DNA of 64,000 bases from Candidatus Poribacteria bacterium. GTDB lineage: Bacteria > Poribacteria > WGA-4E > PCPOR2b. The notes under the pieces are model-generated. The model saw nothing but the letters and a program-made list of their open reading frames with translations, was not told the origin of the DNA and made no database searches. Location of the stretch: assembly GCA_965116925.1 (NCBI GenBank), contig OZ220744.1, forward strand, positions 1,344,001-1,408,000. The letters are read 5' to 3'. Made by a program: the position numbers and the translations under genes. The number at the start of each line of letters is the position of its first letter. The first letter of the stretch is position 1. Shown piece after piece: positions 44,825 through 63,891 of this stretch.

Positions 44825-46513
44825 TCATTGAATACCCTCTTGAATCGAATTTGCATAAGGAATCCGCAGTGCGTCCATAGCCCCCTGCGCCGCACGGATA
44901 CCCGAATAACACGCCTCCTCAAAAAGCGGCAGCCCCGTCACATCCGCATTTGCGAAGAAAATCCTCCCAAACGGACGCCCACGCAGCGCTCGATCCGGAT
45001 GCCAGATGAAATTCGGCGTTGGTCTTATCATCGCGTGACCCCACTTATAGAGATCCATTCGGGTGATATCCTTTTCAATGCCAGGGTGCATCTCCCAAAG
45101 GTCTCTCATGATTGCGTTCACCCAAAAATCGTGCCCCTTGTCTAACAATTCTCTCCGCTTAATATCCGGTTCACGATCAAAGGGAAGGTAATAGGTAAGC
45201 ACCGACGGACCCTCACCATCCGCTGCAGCCCGCGTCTGATGCTCCGCAACGATATAGCCCAACCCCTCACTCTCATACATAACATTATCCCAAGCAAGTG
45301 CGCTCTGTTTTGTCTGCGGTAGCCGTTTGAGGTGGACACTCGCGGTCAGCCACGGCGTATATTGGCACTCCTGAAAAGCGGTTTTCTGGTCAGCTGGGAG
45401 GTTCGGTATGATATAGTTGGCGATATGCTTCTGCCCGGCATAAATCGCTGTCTGCCCACGCAGCGTCGTGAACTGGCGGGTCTGGGTATCCATGAAGGTT
45501 ACTAGCACCTCATCCCCCTGCTGACGGACAGACAGGACGAGGGCATTCAAGCGGACGTTTGCCGAGGAGAAACGTTGTGCCATGCCGTTCACCAGAAAGG
45601 CGTTACCTTGGGACCATGTGACTGTATGGACTGGAAACCGATCTTGTAGTTGATCCGCATAATAACGGCAAGCGTAGTAGTGAATCCCTGCCCACGCCGA
45701 AACCTCATCAATCGGACAGGCGTAATCGTCGCGGCATCCGTAATTGACAAACCAATCCAACCGTTCCGAATCCCACCCCTTTTGGCGCATATATTCCTGC
45801 ATCGTGATCTTATCTAACGCACGCACCTCTGGATCCGCGCTACTATATTCTAACGGCAGCGTAAACGCACGGCGTTGGTCCGCGCCCCTATACAGCATCC
45901 ACCTAAGCATATCAGTCTCAAATTCTTCAAAAACTTGTTGATCTCCTTGAGTTCCGGTGGAAAAAGGATCGAGGTGCTCCACCCAACGGTCATCAATAAA
46001 CAGACGCTCCGCCGGTTCGCGCAGGATGTAATCAGGGTTCATGATGGGCCAACCGAGCGGCGTATAACCCACGACCACCTGAAGCTCCTCAAGCACTTCA
46101 AGGATACAATCCGCCTCCATCGGCGGTGTGTTGATGTAGTGCGCCCCCCAAGGGAATGCGCTACCATTCACCCCAACCTGACCTGAGATTGAGGTTCCAC
46201 CCAATTGGTCTCCCAGATCAAGAATAACAAAATCGGTGACACCGGATCTCGCCAACTTCCAGCCAGCACTGACCCCCGACACCCCACCGCCGATAATAAT
46301 TGCAGTGTATCGCTTGTCGTGTGGGGGTGGGATGAGCGCATCCGAAAGCGGTTGCCGAACCAGATGCCCGATCCCGCTCGGCTCACCGACCACTTCGCCC
46401 GGAATATCGAAAGTCGATGGCTTAGGGGTAGGGGACGAACATCTCGGCAAAAACGGCATCCCTAATCCGAGGAGACAGTATTGTAGGAAAAGACGACGGG
46501 GAATTGGACGCAT
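44825..46513 (-). CDS. FAD-dependent amine-oxidase-like oxidoreductase with a Tat-like signal
   Basis: RRLFL twin-arginine signal; GGGVSG, PWGAHY, CRDDY, SAWAGIHY, WGHAM, FEEA. Confidence 0.85.
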   Translation of the reverse strand: MRPIPRRLFLQYCLLGLGMPFLPRCSSPTPKPSTFDIPGEVVGEPSGIGHLVRQPLSDALIPPPHDKRYTAIIIGGGVSGVSAGWKLARSGVTDFVILDLGDQLGGTSISGQVGVNGSAFPWGAHYINTPPMEADCILEVLEELQVVVGYTPLGWPIMNPDYILREPAERLFIDDRWVEHLDPFSTGTQGDQQVFEEFETDMLRWMLYRGADQRRAFTLPLEYSSADPEVRALDKITMQEYMRQKGWDSERLDWFVNYGCRDDYACPIDEVSAWAGIHYYACRYYADQLQDRFPVHTVTWSQGNAFLVNGMAQRFSSANVRLNALVLSVRQQGDEVLVTFMDTQTRQFTTLRGQTAIYAGQKHIANYIIPNLPADQKTAFQECQYTPWLTASVHLKRLPQTKQSALAWDNVMYESEGLGYIVAEHQTRAAADGEGPSVLTYYLPFDREPDIKRRELLDKGHDFWVNAIMRDLWEMHPGIEKDITRMDLYKWGHAMIRPTPNFIWHPDRALRGRPFGRIFFANADVTGLPLFEEACYSGIRAAQGAMDALRIPYANSIQEGIQ

Positions 46514-46664
46514 GGTTTAAGTGAAACGTAATGCGTGAAACGTGAAAACAATTTTGGTTCATTCGTACATGAATGAACTAATGAGCCAATGAACTCTTGA
46601 ACTCAATATCTTCACCAACTCATGCCAAAGATTGCATAGAACTCCAAGAATCTGAGGCAAATTC

Positions 46665-48200
46665 CTAAAGTCCCCAAGATTCCCAACCCTCCCGGTGATA
46701 GAACAGCAGAATTGGCGTCAAAAGGGTATTGATTTGCGTTTCGACCTCATCAATATCTTTGTTAAAGACAAACAGGGGGGCGAGCGATTCGTCCGAAAGA
46801 AAGCGGGTTGGCACCGTTATCCTAACCTTCTGTGGATCAATCTGCCACTCACCAAAAAGATTGAACCCCCATTCGCCAAAACTTGGCACATTCACATGGT
46901 AAGGGGTTGCATACAACCCGGCAGATTCGATTGTCTGATGGATACACCAGAACGCATTGTGTGCAAAAAAGGGAGAACTGCTCTGCGTCACGGCGAGTCC
47001 GTCTTTGGCGAGGCGACGTTTGACGAGGTGATAGAATGTATCTGAGTAGAGCGACACAAGCGACTCATCGGTAGGATCAGGGAGGTCGATAATAATTAAA
47101 TTATAGCGTTGGTCGGTTGCTTGGAGGAATTGCTGTGCATCCTGATTAATTACCTTCACCTTCGGGTTGTGGAGTGCGTCTTGGTTGAGTCGGCGCAATG
47201 TGCTGTCTGTAGACGAAAGTTCCGTTATCATCGGGTCAAGGTCAACCACCGTGATGTCATCCACATCGTTGTATTTCAGGATCTCACGCGCTGCGAGGCC
47301 ATCGCCGCCGCCGAGGACAAGCACCTGTGTCCGTGAAGGAATCAAAGAAGCCGCCGGATGAATCAAGGCTTCATGATAGCGATACTCGTCCATCGCGCTG
47401 AACTGCAAGCGGCCGTTGATGTAGAGACGGACATCGTCCTTCCAGCGTGTGACGACAATACGTTGATACTTGGACGCCTTCGACAGGATAATCCGGTCGG
47501 CGTAAACACGCTGTTCAAGGTAGCGGCTCACCGGATTGCTAATCACTAGCGCGACAATCAGTCCCATTGTTACTAGCACAGCTGCTGCAACGGTCCGCTT
47601 GAAGTGCTGGATTTCGCGTCGAAACAGAATCAGGTTGCCAATCACCACAGCAAGATTGGCAAGCCCCATGACCAACGAAGTCTCAAAAATTCCCAACAGG
47701 GGCAACAGCAGCAGTGGGAACGCAAGAGAACCGATTAATCCGCCCAGATAATCAAAGGTGAGGGCATTTGCTAGCGCAATTCGTAGGGTCGTATATTCGC
47801 GGAAGATTCGAGTCAGCAGCGGAAGTTCCAAGCCAATCAGCGTCCCAATGAGAATAATTAATATCCACATGGTTGGGACATAGAAGAATTTGAAGCTGTA
47901 TGCTGCAAAAAGGATAGGGCAAGAAAAACCACCGATGCACCCAATTACCAGCTCAACCCGGATAAACGCTGTGATGAGTTGACGGGTGATATATTTCGAC
48001 AGATACGATCCGATCCCCATCGCTGTCATAAACAGCCCGATCGTAATCGAAAATTGATAGATGCTGTTGCCCAAGAGGTAGGAAGATAAACTCCCGATCC
48101 CAAGTTCATAAACAATCGCACAAATTGCAATAATTGAAACCGAGAGGAGAAGTATAACGCCGCGTGACTTGAGACGCCGATCGATATCGTTTGCATTCAT
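46665..48200 (-). CDS. speE: Membrane-anchored polyamine aminopropyltransferase (spermidine synthase-like)
   Basis: Multiple N-terminal TM helices; QF...DEYRYHEAL, LGGGDG, VDLD, IDLPDP, VPSFGEWGF. Confidence 0.88.
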   Translation of the reverse strand: MNANDIDRRLKSRGVILLLSVSIIAICAIVYELGIGSLSSYLLGNSIYQFSITIGLFMTAMGIGSYLSKYITRQLITAFIRVELVIGCIGGFSCPILFAAYSFKFFYVPTMWILIILIGTLIGLELPLLTRIFREYTTLRIALANALTFDYLGGLIGSLAFPLLLLPLLGIFETSLVMGLANLAVVIGNLILFRREIQHFKRTVAAAVLVTMGLIVALVISNPVSRYLEQRVYADRIILSKASKYQRIVVTRWKDDVRLYINGRLQFSAMDEYRYHEALIHPAASLIPSRTQVLVLGGGDGLAAREILKYNDVDDITVVDLDPMITELSSTDSTLRRLNQDALHNPKVKVINQDAQQFLQATDQRYNLIIIDLPDPTDESLVSLYSDTFYHLVKRRLAKDGLAVTQSSSPFFAHNAFWCIHQTIESAGLYATPYHVNVPSFGEWGFNLFGEWQIDPQKVRITVPTRFLSDESLAPLFVFNKDIDEVETQINTLLTPILLFYHREGWESWGL

Positions 48201-56652: not shown

Positions 56653-58911
56653 TTAAAAATTCAACCGATATAGGAGTTTTACATTCCTTCCCGACTCCGG
56701 CATCACCGATTTAATTCTCGAAAGATGTTGACGGTATTCGGCATCGAAAATATTCTCGACCGTGACAACCGCCTGATGCTGAAGTTGCCACACCGGAAAC
56801 GCCAATTGGATACCCGCATCGTAGACGACATACCCGTCGGTTGCCTCTTCAAATTCGCCAAGTCGGTGCTGACCATCTGAAAATCGAGCTGTGAAATGAA
56901 CGTTTAACGGAGGCGTAACGTATCGCAACGCTACTTTGCCGTTGAGTGGTGGGATACGTTCAAGCGGTAACCCGCTGGCCGTTAATGTCCCTTTGACGTA
57001 ACTCATGCTTGCCTGCGCCTGAAATCGTGGAATAATTTCAGTGTCAACGCTAAATTCGACACCATCAAGTACCGCGTCTTGTCCCTGATATTGATATATC
57101 CACAGCCACCCCGCTGCGCCACTCCCCCAATCCTTTTCACCTGTGTTGGTCTGAATCAGATAGCCGTAAATTTGGTTGCGAAAAACGGTGAGATTAAGTT
57201 TCAGCCGCTTGGCTGCATAGCGCAGGAATGCTTCTGTTCCTAAGCCATCCTCCGAGTCGAGTTCGGCGTTGCCAATTTCGTAGGAGTAGACTGCGAGATG
57301 AGGACCATCTGAAAAAAGTTCTTCGATCCCCGGCGTACGGAACGTCTTCATCAAGGTGGCTCCTGTTTCCAAGTGGTCATCCCAATGATAGATGCCCGAA
57401 ACTGCACTCGATACACCGCCGAAGTCCCGTCGTTCCACCGTTCCCGCGCGGGTGACAATACCTTCCTTAAACGGTTCAGCCCGCCTGACATCGTAGCGAA
57501 TCGCACCTTGCAGTGTTAAATCCTCGTTGAGTCGTTTCTGTTTCAAATAGAATCCCGCTAACGACATTTCCCGTGTGTGCGGTGTCCAGTAAAACCCACC
57601 GGTCGCATGGTCACGGTACTCGCCCCAAACCCCGGCAACCGCGTCGCCACGCATATAAGCCAGCGCGGAAACGTTGGTTGTCAGAACGCCAAACTCAACA
57701 CCGAGCCGGTTGTTCGATTCCCGCTCTTGATGTTGGTAGCGTGTGTAGGTCGAGTGCAGTTTCAGTTTCTCAAGAAACGATTGCTGAAATCCGTACTCAA
57801 AATCAGCCTCATACCGCTGGCGATCAAGGTCGATGGTGACGCCGTGGATATGTCCCTCCGGTGAACCGGGAACCCCATAATCTGAGCGGTAGCTACCGCC
57901 AGAAATCCCGATATGCCCCCAATCCTTGACCATTGAAAGACCTGTTGAAAAATTAGTTTGCGACAGGGCCGTGTTTTCTAAAATACCGATAGGGGTGTGC
58001 GTATCATCGGTGCTGCGGCGGTTCAACTCCAGTCGCCACGCAAAATCACCGATCGGTATCGTAAATCCCGTCGTTCCGGTCAACCCTGAATTGACCGATT
58101 CCCCCTGAAATGTGAGATTCATCGTTGGGCGACGGGGCAAGGTTTGTGGGATAGTTTCTCGCTTGACATTGACGACACCGCCGAGTGTGCTCGACCCATA
58201 AATGAGCGATGCCGGTCCGCGCGTAATCTCAATATTTGTTGCAGTGGTAGGGTCAATTGCGACCGCATGGTCCGCTGAGGAGGCTGATTTATCGCCGGTG
58301 CGTCCACCATCTTCGAGGATAAGCAGTCGATCGCCCCCCATGCCCCGGACGACCGGACGCGCGGTCGCTCTGCCCATTGTCCGCTGGGCAATCCCCACCT
58401 CCTCGCTAAGCGTCTCGGCTATGGTTGCTCCCATTTTCTGATCCAGTTCCTGGGCAGAGAGGTTCAGGTCGGTTGTTTTCTCAAAATGAGCATGCTCCTC
58501 GTCGCCGGGTGTGACAACAACCTCTCCGAGTTGGAGCGGATTGCGTTTCAATCTGATCGTCATCGTCATCGGATCTGTTTCGACAACGATTTTTTTACCT
58601 AACGTTTCATAGCCAACACGCTCAAATCGTAGCGTATATGTCCCTTGCACAATCTCGTCAAACCGAAACTCTCCGGTCCTACCGGTTCGGAACAAAGATA
58701 TTCCTTCTGCGTCGCGTAATAGGGATACGTGGACATCCACAAGGGGAGTTTCCGTCTCTGCATCAATCACCTCTCCTGAGATGGAGATATTGTGGGCAAA
58801 GGAGCTCCCTTTTATAAAACAGATGAGAAAAATAGCAGATAGCACAAGACGGAGCCACTTCACAGTAAATGTAATCAGTAACAACGTGCATCTAAAAAAA
58901 CAGGTAAACAT
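56653..58911 (-). CDS. TonB-dependent receptor (ZnuD-like metal receptor)
   Basis: N-terminal carboxypeptidase-like domain; plug RPVVRG, DHA, IEITRGPASLIYG; ELFSDGPH; C-terminal Phe. Start uncertain (58914, 58911 or GTG 58863). Confidence 0.9.
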   Translation of the reverse strand: MFTCFFRCTLLLITFTVKWLRLVLSAIFLICFIKGSSFAHNISISGEVIDAETETPLVDVHVSLLRDAEGISLFRTGRTGEFRFDEIVQGTYTLRFERVGYETLGKKIVVETDPMTMTIRLKRNPLQLGEVVVTPGDEEHAHFEKTTDLNLSAQELDQKMGATIAETLSEEVGIAQRTMGRATARPVVRGMGGDRLLILEDGGRTGDKSASSADHAVAIDPTTATNIEITRGPASLIYGSSTLGGVVNVKRETIPQTLPRRPTMNLTFQGESVNSGLTGTTGFTIPIGDFAWRLELNRRSTDDTHTPIGILENTALSQTNFSTGLSMVKDWGHIGISGGSYRSDYGVPGSPEGHIHGVTIDLDRQRYEADFEYGFQQSFLEKLKLHSTYTRYQHQERESNNRLGVEFGVLTTNVSALAYMRGDAVAGVWGEYRDHATGGFYWTPHTREMSLAGFYLKQKRLNEDLTLQGAIRYDVRRAEPFKEGIVTRAGTVERRDFGGVSSAVSGIYHWDDHLETGATLMKTFRTPGIEELFSDGPHLAVYSYEIGNAELDSEDGLGTEAFLRYAAKRLKLNLTVFRNQIYGYLIQTNTGEKDWGSGAAGWLWIYQYQGQDAVLDGVEFSVDTEIIPRFQAQASMSYVKGTLTASGLPLERIPPLNGKVALRYVTPPLNVHFTARFSDGQHRLGEFEEATDGYVVYDAGIQLAFPVWQLQHQAVVTVENIFDAEYRQHLSRIKSVMPESGRNVKLLYRLNF

Positions 58912-59041
58912 CATTTCCTCCAGATATAAATAGATCGTCTTCCCAGCACCATTGCTGAGGCATACTAACACTAGCGTCAAATCAGCCGGGAAAGGCAGCA
59001 ATTAATTAAACAAAAACAGAAATATGGATTAGACCAAAAAA

Positions 59042-59368
59042 TTAAACGGAGAACGTTGGTGGGGCACGACTTTGGATGCTTTTGTTGAGTGTTGTAGAAA
59101 TGAAAATTGAATCGAAAGGCGAGTGAATTGAGATGCACGTATCAACATTGGCAGTGTCAACAGGATCAATTTCTATACCGACGTGATTGGCACTGAAGAA
59201 ACAAGCAGAACAATCTGTCGAACAGTGGTTCGCATGGTCATGTTCGTGGTTATGGTCATGGCCATGTTCGTGTGGAAGTCCAACCAAGCTTATTGCCATC
59301 AGGCAATAAGAAATGCCCACCGCAATTATCCAGCTAGTTGGATTGATGTAGATTCGATCGCTCTGCAA
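59042..59368 (-). CDS. DUF2946/CruR-like His-rich leader protein with CxxC and C-terminal RAPP
   Basis: Hydrophobic N-terminus; HEHGHDHNHEHDHANH, CSAC, SRAPP; directly upstream of the TBDR. Confidence 0.75.
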   Translation of the reverse strand: MQSDRIYINPTSWIIAVGISYCLMAISLVGLPHEHGHDHNHEHDHANHCSTDCSACFFSANHVGIEIDPVDTANVDTCISIHSPFDSIFISTTLNKSIQSRAPPTFSV

Positions 59369-59480
59369 GAGCCTTTACCTCTTTTAAGAGTCGGATATTT
59401 GGAAACTGAAGAAAAAAATCATAATACAAGGGAATAACTTTGATAATTTTTTATTTTGAAAATTATATGCAATAGTGCCG

Positions 59481-59715: not shown

Positions 59716-60825
59716 TTATCGTGCACGTTTTACCTCATCCAACTCTAATTGATAGACACCCATCAGCATCAAATCCTCCCGAAACTCCTGACCGACCGAA
59801 AGTTTACCAAAAACAGTGATTGGCATATCCATCACCGTTTGAATTTTCTGCTTTTTTGAGGATTCAACGTAGATAACCTCGTTGATACGGGGGGCAACGC
59901 CGAAACAGCACGACATTGTTGACTTAAGCAATAGGAACCTTTGCACTTTTCCCTTGTCAACGTCAATCGGGAGCATAAATCCCGTGATCGCAACCTTCTT
60001 TCCATCAATTTGCTTAACTTTGTCGGGAATCTCTGCGTCGTAGGAAAGCGAGGCGATGTATTCTGAGTCTGCCAACTGCCTCCAATCCGGCTCATCAAGC
60101 CAGTAGTCACCTAAGAAACCGAATGGCACGCGTAAGTAGTCGCCAACCATTTCGGTGGGAACGGCAATAGTTTCAGTGCTATCAATAGCAAACAGACTAA
60201 AGTTGATCGGCGTCGGAGAGGTCAATTCCGGCTCTGTCTCAACGTTGTAGTCAGCGAACTGGATTTCAAACCCACCGACGAGCCGTAGCACATCGCCCGG
60301 TAACCATTGGACAAACCGACTGTTTCTTGAAAAATAGGTAAACCGTAACTCCTTCAACTCCACCGACTTTTTGGCACCGTGTAACTCAAAGGTCGCTTTG
60401 GCATCAGTCTTGATGGGTAAGCCATCAACCAGTCGGACATCTTCCGCGACATTTAGGCTTTCAATCCGAAGGATAGCTTGCGGGTAGACATCAGCGTTCC
60501 ACCCAACCTTCTGTGGCTCTTCATCAACGCTGGTCTGCATTTTCAGACGTTTCATATCAAGTTGGAACATCGCCTTAAATGTCTTATGCAGTGCATCGGG
60601 GTCGAGCGCAATGGTTCCGTTGATACGTTCGGTTGTCGCCCGGAACTGACTGCCTCCAAACATGAACACATTTCTCTCTTTATCCAGCGTGAATGTTTTT
60701 AACTTCGCAGACGGGTCGTCTTGAGCGGAGGCAAAGCCAAATATCCCGAAGATTAACCCAAAAACCGTTGCATAAAAAACAAAACGTAATCCGTAAGAGG
60801 AGAATACGTTAACCATATTCCTCAC
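59716..60825 (-). CDS. YceI-like domain + DUF3299 domain fusion
   Basis: Signal peptide; YceI-like INGTI, FELHG, F.I...DYNV; DUF3299 DGKKVAITGFMLP, FLL, CCFG..P..NE. Confidence 0.75.
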   Translation of the reverse strand: MRNMVNVFSSYGLRFVFYATVFGLIFGIFGFASAQDDPSAKLKTFTLDKERNVFMFGGSQFRATTERINGTIALDPDALHKTFKAMFQLDMKRLKMQTSVDEEPQKVGWNADVYPQAILRIESLNVAEDVRLVDGLPIKTDAKATFELHGAKKSVELKELRFTYFSRNSRFVQWLPGDVLRLVGGFEIQFADYNVETEPELTSPTPINFSLFAIDSTETIAVPTEMVGDYLRVPFGFLGDYWLDEPDWRQLADSEYIASLSYDAEIPDKVKQIDGKKVAITGFMLPIDVDKGKVQRFLLLKSTMSCCFGVAPRINEVIYVESSKKQKIQTVMDMPITVFGKLSVGQEFREDLMLMGVYQLELDEVKRAR

Positions 60826-61451
60826 TCCTTTTGGTCTAGCTGTATCCGATCCAGGTCAAGGTGGTAGATACCGGTAAGTACCACGCCTTCAAACTTTGCT
60901 CCGACGTGCAATGTACCTAACAAAGTTATCAGTACATCTTGATGGATATCGATTTTCTTCTTTTCTGGTACTCTAACATACACCCATTCGTTCAGACGGG
61001 GCATGTTACCAAAACAGCACGCCATCTGATCTTTGAGCAACATAAAGGTTCGAAGATTGCCCTCCGACATATCAAGCGGTAACATAAATCCTTGAATCTC
61101 AACATTCTTACCGTCCATTGCTTGAATCAGCGGGGAAATTTGTTCATTAAGTTTCAACGAGGCGATGTATGCCGGATCTTCCATTTTCGCCCAATTCGGC
61201 TCCCTGAACGGGTAGCTAGTGAGCATATTAAAGGTCAGGGATTGATATGCCTCTGTCGCTGATGGTGCTCCCTGCACAGTACCCGATTCGAGCGTTTGAC
61301 CAGTCCGGTCACTCACACCTCGAAGGGCGCGCATCGGGTGCGATTTCGGTAACAGCTGAAAAACGCCCAGCGACAACCCGACGACAACTGCGCTAACCAT
61401 TGTAAAGTTCAGCCACGCGCTGCGTCGATTTTTTGTTTTAAGCATTTTCAT
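60822..61451 (-). CDS. DUF3299 (ZrgD-like) membrane-anchored protein
   Basis: DGKNVEIQGFMLP, ACCFG..P..NEW; 4-nt overlap with the next gene. Confidence 0.8.
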   Translation of the reverse strand: MKMLKTKNRRSAWLNFTMVSAVVVGLSLGVFQLLPKSHPMRALRGVSDRTGQTLESGTVQGAPSATEAYQSLTFNMLTSYPFREPNWAKMEDPAYIASLKLNEQISPLIQAMDGKNVEIQGFMLPLDMSEGNLRTFMLLKDQMACCFGNMPRLNEWVYVRVPEKKKIDIHQDVLITLLGTLHVGAKFEGVVLTGIYHLDLDRIQLDQKE

Positions 61452-61467
61452 CCCTTCCACCCCCTGA

Positions 61468-62001
61468 CTAATGTTCATCATGCTCACTATGTGTTTCTTC
61501 ATTGCCTTCGGGGAACTCAAAGTCTATGTCGGTGAACATCTGACCTTTTATGTCAATCGAAACAATTTCTGCATGAAATTCCGATACACCCTGTAATGTG
61601 TCCGATTGTGCTGCAAATTGAGAAGTATCTCCTTCGGTTTCTCCGGTCAGAACGTTCGCAACCCCTGAAAGTTGCAACATAAATTCAGACTGGATATCTT
61701 CTCGATGTATTTTGAGTTCAATTGTCTTCTGCGAGAGTCGTACCGGTTTTTCCGCTTCACCGTCCAGCACGTAGCCAATAAGTTTTCCGGTCGTTTGGTC
61801 TAGCACAAACTCAATGTGTGCGAACTCATCGCCAAAGACAACCAATGTCCCACCGTGAGGTGCCGTATGTTCATGATGTGTATCGGTTTCGGGCGTTGCC
61901 GCCTGTTCGTGATGCTGCTCTTCCTTTTTCTCACAACTGAGTTGGGCAATGACAACAGATAAAATCGCCGTCCATATCAAGAAAGTTCTTTGGATTTTCA
62001 T
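61468..62001 (-). CDS. His-rich lipoprotein, probable metal-binding protein
   Basis: Lipobox-like QLSC; HHEHTAPHGG, AHIEFV; C-terminal HSEHDEH. Confidence 0.7.
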   Translation of the reverse strand: MKIQRTFLIWTAILSVVIAQLSCEKKEEQHHEQAATPETDTHHEHTAPHGGTLVVFGDEFAHIEFVLDQTTGKLIGYVLDGEAEKPVRLSQKTIELKIHREDIQSEFMLQLSGVANVLTGETEGDTSQFAAQSDTLQGVSEFHAEIVSIDIKGQMFTDIDFEFPEGNEETHSEHDEH

Positions 62002-62434
62002 GATGATTTTCCTTTCAGCAAGACTCAATGAATAGAGAAAGGTGCTTAATTAACAAAATTTGGAACATTTCAACACGCTTGTATGGTATATTAACTTAAG
62101 TTGCTAGTGATGTGCGAATCGATAAGATTCCCCTTATACTCGCAGGTCGGGCATCTTGCCCGATCTACAAAGCCCCAGCGGGGCGATATGTGTATAGCAC
62201 GTCGGTAAACCAATACCTCCAAGCCCCAGCGAGGCGACATGTGTATCCGAAGGGTGGAATATAAGAAGCAATGAATCAGCCAACTAATGAACCGATGAAC
62301 TCTCCGATAAATCTGGATTTTCAACTTGAACAGTGTAGAAACGATTTTCTCATAACTAGCGCCAAAGGTTAATACGTCGTTAGGTCTGTACATTCCGGCA
62401 CTTGTAACGCCAAATCAGTTAATAGGAGAATCCA

Positions 62435-62629
62435 ATGATTAAAGATTCCCTCATCGTTGAAGATATTCGTCGCGTCCGCCGCGCGATTTCAGAACGATTT
62501 GCCCATGATGTGAATGGATATATTGACTACCTTCAAAAAAAACGAGAGTCATCAGATCACGCGGATATCGTGGTCCCCCCTTCAGAACCGCCGCCAAATA
62601 CAGAAAAAGCCACGCCCCACAAGGTTTAG
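62435..62629 (+). CDS. Small hypothetical protein (antitoxin-like D.IVE.IR..R pattern)
   Basis: AGGAG RBS; DSLIVEDIRRVRRAISERFAHDV..Y..YLQ. Confidence 0.5.
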   Translation: MIKDSLIVEDIRRVRRAISERFAHDVNGYIDYLQKKRESSDHADIVVPPSEPPPNTEKATPHKV

Positions 62630-63891
62630 CTTATGGGTGTTAAATTCGTCGCAACATCTGTCTGGTACGCCTTGAAAGCAGGCACAATGCCAGCGATCAC
62701 CCCCAGAAGTATGACGCAGACTGGCACGACTACGAACGCGAGATGAAATTTCAACAGGTCTAAAACGATACCCGTCTGAGCGCGAACAATTGCTGATGCT
62801 GAGGTAAAAATCGCACCGTAGACTATAAATCCTATGATGACCCCTAATGCTGCGATCGATGCCGCTTCTAACACAATTACCGTAAACACCGTTTTACGAC
62901 GTGCGCCGATCGATCGCAAAATAGCGAACTCGCGCCGCCGTTCGTTGATGGAGTTATAGATGCTTGCGAGAATTGAACCCGCTGCAACAAGGACAACAAG
63001 ATAAGAAACGAGTGCCAGAATCTGATTCATCCAACCGATTTTGTTAAACAGATTAGCCATCACTGCCCCGATGGGCCATGCCAACGTTGCCACCTTCCCC
63101 TGTTTGTTGATCATGGCATCCATCATGAAACCGATCTGTGGATTCCGAAACTTCAGCATGACTGCGCTGACCTCTTTGTGTGCGTCGGGGATCTCTTGAC
63201 CGGGTTGGGCAACATATTCCTCACCACTTCCGCGCAACACATGGCCCTCCAGCCGATAAACTCCCTCGATCGGAATCCAGATGACACGGTCGGAGGGTGA
63301 ATTAGTCGCTTCGAGCACACCAACAACAACATATTGTTCATCATGCCGCATTGATTCATCAAACACCAAGCCGTGATACGGGTTAAACGTATCCCCTACC
63401 GTTAAGCCCAACTTCTGTGCGGCATAACTGCCAATGACTGCTTCCTGATTATTGGGATCGAAAAAACGTCCGTTCCCGCGTATCCGAAACCGAACCCCTT
63501 TGCGGTATTCAAACTCCGTAAACAACGCCGTTGTCGTGCCGACGATACGGAAACCGTAATAATTGTCTCCAAGCGCGTAGGGAATAGCGAGTTCGACACG
63601 CGGATCATTTTTCACCGCTTGATACATCGTCCACGGGATATTCCCCGGTGAGGTTTCGAGATGAAATACGGTGTTCAACACCAATTGTAACGGACTGCCA
63701 CGTGCTCCCAAGACCGCATCAAAGCCAATCGGACCTCCCGTGAATGCTGAAACGGATTGTGATCTGATGGCGATAACCGCCATGACAAGTCCCGTACCAA
63801 GCGCGATTGACAATGTGGTAATGAGGGTCGAAAGCGCGTGTTGTCGAAGACTGCGTTGAACGATGAAAAACAACCCGATCCGTTTTTTCAT
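62626..63891 (-). CDS. MacB/FtsX-like ABC permease (ZrgC-like)
   Basis: GARGSPLQLVLN.VFH, IP.ALGD.Y.GFRIVGT, F.P.HG, ERRREFAILRSIGA. Confidence 0.88.
   Translation of the reverse strand: MKKRIGLFFIVQRSLRQHALSTLITTLSIALGTGLVMAVIAIRSQSVSAFTGGPIGFDAVLGARGSPLQLVLNTVFHLETSPGNIPWTMYQAVKNDPRVELAIPYALGDNYYGFRIVGTTTALFTEFEYRKGVRFRIRGNGRFFDPNNQEAVIGSYAAQKLGLTVGDTFNPYHGLVFDESMRHDEQYVVVGVLEATNSPSDRVIWIPIEGVYRLEGHVLRGSGEEYVAQPGQEIPDAHKEVSAVMLKFRNPQIGFMMDAMINKQGKVATLAWPIGAVMANLFNKIGWMNQILALVSYLVVLVAAGSILASIYNSINERRREFAILRSIGARRKTVFTVIVLEAASIAALGVIIGFIVYGAIFTSASAIVRAQTGIVLDLLKFHLAFVVVPVCVILLGVIAGIVPAFKAYQTDVATNLTPIS

Follow-up and report, generated by a model that had tools for sequence, protein, structure and literature searches.

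Within a 64,000-nucleotide (nt) stretch of a Candidatus Poribacteria bacterium genome (contig OZ220744.1, positions 1,344,001 to 1,408,000; hereafter the window), an open reading frame (ORF) of 108 amino acids (aa) precedes a gene encoding a TonB-dependent receptor. We propose, with a probability of roughly 0.55, that this ORF acts as a zinc-released ribosome brake, in which a leader peptide carrying a His/Cys patch and a RAPP motif would keep the ZnuD-like receptor gene on when zinc is scarce. The parts of this proposal read directly from sequence are the motifs and their spacing, the zinc-type gene context and the complementarity of the codons after RAPP to the Shine-Dalgarno sequence. Judged by its conservation, the ORF is a regulatory leader that falls outside Pfam DUF2946 by cut-off. 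The elements of the locus are as follows.

59042..59368 (-), leader ORF, 108 aa, TTG start (ORF call and conservation in relatives)
59377..59381 (-), leader Shine-Dalgarno-like GAGGT (from sequence)
59418..59446 (-), predicted sigma-70-like promoter, TTATCA (59441-59446), 17 nt, TATGAT (59418-59423), on sequence and conservation grounds
59276..59332 (-), hydrophobic stretch (mean hydropathy 2.17) at residues 13-31, predicted to be an anchor in the membrane or a signal
59225..59272 (-), His-rich tract HEHGHDHNHEHDHANH, residues 33-48, length differing between relatives
59201..59224 (-), CSTDCSAC, residues 49-56 (C49-x3-C53-x2-C56), C53 and C56 invariant
59057..59068 (-), RAPP codons R101-P104, predicted arrest site, 44 residues past C56
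59047..59053 (-), anti-Shine-Dalgarno TTCTCCG, codons after RAPP, predicted 7-bp helix with 58916-58922
58912..59041 (-), leader-receptor spacer, 130 nt, 38.5% G+C, first 50 nt U-rich (29 U)
58940..58994 (-), inner stem, conserved, with arms CTTTCCCGGC (58985-58994) and GCTGGGAA (58940-58947) that remain paired, covariation not above shuffles
58916..58922 (-), receptor Shine-Dalgarno TGGAGGA (from sequence)
56653..58911 (-), TonB-dependent receptor, nearest ZnuD (profile and structure-database matches)

An earlier, sequence-only reading of the window had described a 108-aa ORF with a hydrophobic N-terminus, a His tract, CSTDCSAC and a terminal SRAPP, followed after an AT-rich spacer of about 130 nt by a co-oriented receptor, and all of these elements are present (spacer 38.5% G+C against 49.2% for the genome; receptor ATG at 58911). 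By hydropathy only, the leader has its maximum (2.17, 19-residue windows) in the segment starting at residue 13, and its C-terminus reads SRAPP, then TFSV, then stop. Such an ending is rare. A terminal R[AG]PP (at most 16 residues from the stop) occurred in 10 of 28,089 genomic stop-to-stop frames of at least 70 aa, and only two of these frames, the window leader and its paralog, combined it with a CxxC 44-53 residues upstream.

The leader was found in 34 of 41 genomes by a single-protein search (57 match rows, of which three contig-end fragments were left out and two rows represent one gene) and in 130 of the 151 genomes of the phylum by a profile search, all from one order. RAPP was encoded in all 53 leader genes examined, and in 70 of 71 matches from a held-out set of 60 further regions, the remaining one carrying RSPP; the conservation in orthologous loci that the sequence-only reading had set out as a check was thus observed. 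One of the 53 is a broken copy (L044:1590-1889 (-), G022) with an in-frame TGA and a reduced His tract, behind which no long co-oriented gene was found. C53, C56 and RAPP were the only invariant positions in a 37-row alignment from which near-duplicates and one fragment had been removed beforehand. The first Cys lay 48 residues from the Arg in 50 of 52 leaders and 49 in two, and CxxC and RAPP were separated by 44 residues in 50 of 52 and by 45 in two (CxxC sought in the 40-55 range). A whole-library profile search returned 73 representatives with the same hydrophobic-His-CxxC-RAPP plan.

This spacing matches that of the copper leader CruR (Bp2923) of Bordetella pertussis, in which CXXC at 90-93 and RAPP at 139-142 give a first Cys-to-Arg distance of 49 and a gap of 45 residues; five added residues spoil regulation, and spacing within that family is kept within 1-2 residues (PMC9426467). 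With both Cys and RAPP invariant and the Cys-RAPP spacing of CruR, the earlier assignment to CruR/CutF-type arrest leaders seems well founded. The proposed likeness to DUF2946 held for the motif plan but not for Pfam membership: a profile search with PF11162 (DUF2946; cut-off 23.7 bits) gave no match to the window protein at E ≤ 1 and nothing over the cut-off genome-wide. Weak matches occurred in 10 of 37 close relatives (best E 0.0003) and in 23 of 48 distant ones, one of them over the cut-off. The Atlas protein clusters for the leader are unnamed, the nearest named being DUF2946, on 16% of members.

Gene content makes zinc the best-supported metal. The best NCBIfam match of the receptor was ZnuD (first among 24 families, E 6.6e-54, against 2.4e-16 for a copper receptor), its best PDB match was also ZnuD (1e-31, against 7e-8 for OprC), and residues about 143-645 align to ZnuD. 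A permease encoded upstream shares 29% identity with Vibrio ZrgB across 413 aa, and in relatives the leaders head ZnuA/ZnuB genes, or COG0523 and WD40 genes. No copper-chaperone genes were seen in the 20-kb neighbourhoods, of which part of the ORFs were scanned. The sequence-only reading had suggested a metal other than copper; the neighbourhood appears to favour zinc, clearly ahead of nickel or cobalt. The genome also carries a Fur-family gene divergent from znuA, which we read as Zur. A matrix built from Caulobacter Zur sites (PMC4176598) ranked the zur-znuA intergenic sites first and second genome-wide, and two strong Zur-type boxes lie at L075:1180-1360, between divergent zur-like and znuA genes.

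The leader family may also include Vibrio ZrgD, which was reached through a weak DUF2607 match in one relative together with the equation of zrgD with DUF2607 in PMC9817125; the Vibrio zrg operon was located through its Zur site. PF10795 (DUF2607; cut-off 24 bits) gave no match to the window leader, and one distant relative scored 15 bits. The two families nevertheless matched profile to profile at 95.6% (E 1.3e-8). ZrgD has a hydrophobic segment, HHSHHHC48 and R93APP, so that Cys and Arg are 45 residues apart, the same as C56-R101. Across the 61 Vibrionaceae genomes a DUF2607 match was present in 21; all 21 proteins have a Cys at R-45, with RAPP in 13 and RSPP in 8, and all 21 genes have a Zur-like box within 90 nt upstream (loose pattern). 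A ribosome-sized block cut the cost of opening the Shine-Dalgarno of the following gene by more than 1 kcal for 13 of 18 zrgD genes (three of the 21 were left out, two for want of a start and one as a repeat). ZrgD thus shares with the window leader a hydrophobic segment, a His-rich patch, a Cys 45 residues before R[AS]PP, and its place as first gene ahead of zrg-type ATPase, permease and DUF3299 genes. It differs in having a single conserved Cys, a Zur-like box directly upstream, a spacer of 42-109 nt and ZrgA as the next gene, whereas the window leader has no Zur box in its cluster and is not followed by zrgA. ZrgD has been described as a hypothetical single-helix protein of unknown function (PMC9820375), and the zrg operon is up 75-206 fold under zinc limitation (PMC9817125).

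Downstream of the stall site, the 12 nt after the RAPP codons are complementary to the Shine-Dalgarno of the next gene in one fixed register across nine genera (discovery set of 51 leaders, one having been dropped for want of a site). Core pairs t4-t10 were retained in 40-51 of 51 leaders per position, and 0.26% of 5000 cross-genus permutations reached the observed covariation of the flanking pairs. TCC and TCT, which make up 30% of genomic Ser codons, encoded the Ser that follows RAPP in 41 of 41 cases, and CTCC stood at the tail position in 3 of 3017 long ORFs. An arrested ribosome covers about ten further bases. Residues beyond the stall are not yet made at arrest, and therefore their conservation points to RNA. 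In the held-out set, four tails are shifted by one base, which changes the peptide while 9-12 pairs stay. The 46 leaders counted there (of 64 with a start found) belong to a distant family, f2, with a lipoprotein downstream; at least 10 of 12 positions paired in 39 of the 46, compared with 4.5% of control combinations, over distances of 201-593 nt. The fixed-register count failed in a group from marine metagenomes, because the tails there pair with an offset of one codon; their best duplexes ranged from -2.4 to -13.2 kcal for leaders with a site, and the rule used gave none for 7 of 25 full leaders. The predicted long-range mask is, in sum, strong in relatives and weak in the window copy.

Other RNA elements of the spacer were considered. 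The CAGCA/TGCTG hairpin noted earlier does have both arms (58953-58957 and 58944-58948) but was rejected as a switch, being not conserved (CAGCA in 0 of 11 other receptor-copy spacers examined). The inner stem was likewise rejected as an element melted by the ribosome: it starts about 60 nt past RAPP and does not include the Shine-Dalgarno, and insertions separate it from RAPP in five genomes. Short repeat-like insertions occur in leader spacers (L004, L005, L010, L012, L013, L015), in promoters and between cluster genes, as well as at 62091-62629 of the window. No Rfam match came close to threshold across 14 kb, and the region from RAPP to the receptor start folded no better than shuffles (z +1.43; paralog +0.58). 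Contigs assembled from RNA runs on related strains span the two leaders and the greater part of the cluster; they carry no level, ends or strand and were not used as evidence.

We envisage that the ribosome would arrest at RAPP, its P and A sites occupied by the two prolines, which is the arrest that toeprinting established for CruR (PMC12992588). The arrested ribosome would cover the anti-Shine-Dalgarno and a C-rich stretch, so that the receptor ribosome-binding site would be free and Rho unable to load. Zinc would bind the emerged His/Cys patch, which would fold and pull the nascent chain free; once the ribosome departs, the long-range helix would close on the Shine-Dalgarno and Rho polarity may follow. 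The input would thus be CruR-like and the output SecM/CutF-like. Because the stall is the ON state and the targets are importers, the metal must on this scheme release the stall. At arrest, the P-site proline would be separated from C56 by 47 residues and from the His tract by 55-70, which, given the length of the ribosome tunnel, places both outside it; with the hydrophobic segment inserted N-in, both could lie on the periplasmic side. Both helix and Rho outputs may act, and because the helix of the window copy is weak, Rho may carry much of the output there.

Several observations weigh against this scheme, as regards both the helix and the metal, and some of them favour its rivals. Only the 7-bp core forms in the window copy, where 8 of 12 positions pair, as 61% of control GGAGG sites also manage; the fold window moves the helix probability anywhere between 0 and 0.97, and blocking the stall region gave no consistent gain in Shine-Dalgarno opening. 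Only 12 of the 51 discovery leaders gain more than 1 kcal at the Shine-Dalgarno, receptor copies have AGAGG there in 11 of 13 cases with one pair lost, and the second copies of genus g10 pair poorly. Covariation in the two nearest families was not above shuffles (85 of 500), and RNAalifold on 27 spacers predicted just a 4-bp stem touching the Shine-Dalgarno and not the helix. The relatives in these counts are moreover kin, not independent. The same zinc-released leader could instead act here through Rho-dependent termination alone, the output of CruR (PMC9426467), with the anti-Shine-Dalgarno a vestige. The marginal helix and the AGAGG sites speak for this, as do a rho gene in the genome, an excess of C over G of +13 in the 78 nt before RAPP (coding background -2.2, sd 7) and a U-rich, unstructured spacer that tolerates insertions of 110-250 nt in several genomes. 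That C-rich bias is only about 2 standard deviations, however, and both the retention of the t4-t10 pairs and the TCC/TCT codons argue against a vestige; we consider termination by Rho alone unlikely.

The metal could also be another one (Co, Ni, Cu, Mn or Fe), or several. The receptor scored 183.7 bits against NF038289 (ZnuD), far below the cut-off of 950 bits; the MerC-like, COG0523 and CzcCBA-type neighbours also fit other metals, the COG0523 gene scoring similarly with CobW and ZigA; CxxC at this spacing is the copper motif of CruR (PMC9426467); and His-rich CutF-like proteins have been linked to Ni/Co genes (10.1101/2022.11.11.516240). No Zur-like box was found at the predicted leader promoter (59418..59446), at the other leader promoter or in the cluster of the window genome, despite its Zur-like regulator, and Zur control of that cluster was rejected. 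A scan of 136 leaders, with a matrix that included the zur-znuA sites themselves, placed strong Zur-type boxes upstream of six, a point in favour of zinc; all six are in genus g10 and lie between divergent genes for the leader and a 230-aa secreted protein. Against another metal stand the lead of ZnuD over copper, B12 and other receptors, the ZrgB-like permease and DUF3299 genes with ZnuA/ZnuB in relatives, the Zur-like boxes before all 21 ZrgD genes, the induction of the zrg operon by zinc limitation (PMC9817125) and the lack of copper-chaperone genes among the ORFs scanned; on this evidence we think another metal distinctly improbable. A reading to which we give very little credence is that of a small exported peptide, metal-binding or monitoring secretion or redox state, in which RAPP couples expression to export or disulfide status and not to metal binding. 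It would agree with the export signal predicted from hydropathy, with RAPP peptides known as secretion monitors (10.1101/2023.09.02.556018), with the disulfides invoked in the CutF model and with a zrgD deletion that had no effect on growth under chelators (PMC9820375, citing earlier work). A neutral deletion could, however, also result from a cis-acting brake, and ZrgD can form no CxxC disulfide because it has only one conserved Cys; the Cys-to-RAPP distance is fixed in several lineages, and in the relatives examined the leader is always the first gene, with its own promoter-like region, and has been duplicated as a cassette.

This duplication and the genes upstream of the leader are laid out as follows.

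58879..59456 (-), duplicated cassette (promoter, leader, spacer, ribosome-binding site, first codons), 85% identity over 582 nt to the second copy
59716..63891 (-), zrg-like gene block upstream, headed by the other leader copy (domain scans and alignment)
59716-60825 (-), YceI-DUF3299 gene of the zrg-like block
60822-61520 (-), DUF3299 gene of the zrg-like block
61468-62028 (-), His-rich secreted protein of the zrg-like block, 186 aa, not ZrgA-like
62626-63891 (-), ZrgB-like permease (29% identity to Vibrio ZrgB)

The second cassette copy lies just outside the window, 6.8 kb upstream (window-equivalent 65698-66266), and the first 11 or so codons of the receptor correspond to those of the lipoprotein gene behind that copy. 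The receptor directly follows the DUF3299 gene in three genomes of this genus that carry one leader copy each (G004, G008, G015), and because of this gene order, taken without a tree, the leader copy before the receptor looks like a later insertion. All 13 receptor copies have the extra Cys, C49, against 2 of the 12 partner copies, and the His count was higher in the receptor copy in 11 of 12 pairs; these differences probably reflect one inherited event. The synteny of leader and receptor, a check named by the sequence-only reading, held in part: the receptor belongs to the cluster in relatives, but the usual next gene encodes a His-rich lipoprotein without known family and the receptor comes later; MerC-like, ABC ATPase, permease, His-rich and DUF3299 genes lie between these two or follow them. 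The same leader-lipoprotein-receptor arrangement occurs in the marine metagenome group. Neither the second cassette copy nor the anti-Shine-Dalgarno under the stall site nor the ZrgD link had figured in that reading.

The lipoprotein of the second copy (L001:10156-10776 (-), window-equivalent 65155-65775) is His/acidic-rich and has no Pfam or NCBIfam family, nor a family in the Atlas protein clusters; as the usual gene after the leader, also on marine metagenome contigs, it is a candidate for a partner that binds metal for the ZnuD-like receptor. A conserved 230-aa secreted protein with no Pfam family (L001:11377-12069 (+), window-equivalent 66376-67068) is in many relatives encoded divergently from the first leader. 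Receptors vary at their N-termini, with a MerC-like domain fused in G021 and G023 (L058:13355-15952, L060:11447-14041 (-)) and an extra region of about 230 aa behind the second leader of genus g10 (L070:13712-16651, L121:343-3282, L125:126-3065 (-)). The second leader of genus g13 (L116:6947-10893, L118, L132, L133, L134) heads genes for a small Cys-rich protein, an 86-aa protein, a COG0523 GTPase and a WD40 protein. Within the uptake cluster, an exported ORF of 150-160 aa (L067:10102-10554 (-), L062:6375-6827 (+), L125:11038-11520 (-)) precedes a CzcCBA-type efflux system and is possibly another metal leader. The window also contains a 64-aa ORF on the opposite strand (62435-62629) and an unrelated operon at 44825-48200 (-), with a gene at 46665-48200 (-) whose product we take from its sequence to be a spermidine-synthase-like membrane protein.

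Compared with described systems, the window family shares with CruR the export signal, the CxxC, the 44-45 residue gap, the RAPP 3-4 residues from the end, a long spacer, a TonB-dependent importer downstream and a predicted metal-relieved stall. Unlike CruR, it adds a His tract before the CxxC, has zinc-type and not copper genes, scores below the Pfam cut-off and has, beneath the stall site, a conserved long-range anti-Shine-Dalgarno; CruR acts by way of Rho. For the window family, as for SecM and for CutF of Rhodobacter capsulatus (10.1101/2022.11.11.516240, 10.1101/2025.02.05.636593), the stalled ribosome is proposed to open a helix that would mask the Shine-Dalgarno. CutF, in contrast, has CxxxC and a polyproline end, copper induces its stall and its target is a detoxifying oxidase, whereas the window family has CxxC and RAPP with a receptor as target, and neither the motif nor the multicopper oxidase by which CutF is recognised. 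The CutF authors expected unmasking only with short spacers, while the pairing partner here lies 135-590 nt away; His-containing clusters were noted in the CutF survey, with Ni/Co suggested (10.1101/2022.11.11.516240). Alongside these, the window genome has a third RAPP leader (L190:7698-8177 (-), G000:C1 near 2071694) about 155 aa long, which has Cys-Cys pairs, lacks a His tract and precedes genes for a lipoprotein, an outer-membrane efflux protein and a multicopper oxidase; an 11-bp helix that begins in its RAPP codons and runs into the tail joins it to the next Shine-Dalgarno, and it is a candidate CutF-like copper leader.

A survey of RAPP-containing upstream ORFs (PMC12992588) likewise reports small exported RAPP proteins ahead of TonB receptors. 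In the source data of that survey, enrichment downstream of RAPP ORFs is recorded for DUF2796 (ZrgA), 137 against 2, together with DUF2607 rows and RAPP ORFs before zinc-regulated receptors, so that RAPP ORFs ahead of zrgA are already in published source data; they are not discussed in its main text, which has zero occurrences of zinc, DUF2796, DUF2607, Shine or stem-loop, and its supplementary files, as searched, contain no Poribacteria. The metal leaders tested in the literature covered are copper leaders only (CruR, CutF). No zinc-sensing arrest peptide and no paper on ZrgD as a leader were found in the literature, most subscription papers being outside the search, and the list of CutF-like proteins in PMC9973294 may include these families. 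Copper leaders of the CruR and CutF type are established; the window family adds a leader that is likely zinc-linked, a predicted long-range Shine-Dalgarno mask and a testable link to ZrgD.

A broader proposal, to which we would give slightly less than even odds, is that His/Cys-RAPP leaders form a widespread protein-based zinc switch, in which the stalled ribosome would hold open a Shine-Dalgarno up to 600 nt away and zinc would be read possibly in the periplasm. ZrgD would be included as a second gate to Zur; in the lineage of the window genome the leader would have replaced the Zur box and would spread as a plug-in cassette, with copies that vary in their content of Cys and His. The leader peptides would then be the zinc counterpart of the known copper-sensing ones, ZrgD would gain a function and Shine-Dalgarno unmasking would extend to distances thought too long. 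This might bear on the mismatch between the zrg promoter fusion, up about 2-fold under zinc limitation, and the mRNA, up 75-206 fold (PMC9817125), for which plasmid effects are equally possible. The CruR paper (PMC9426467) states that no riboswitch for Cu or Zn is known and that leader peptides may fill this gap; the present family would be a specific candidate for zinc, coupled to an RNA switch that is defined.

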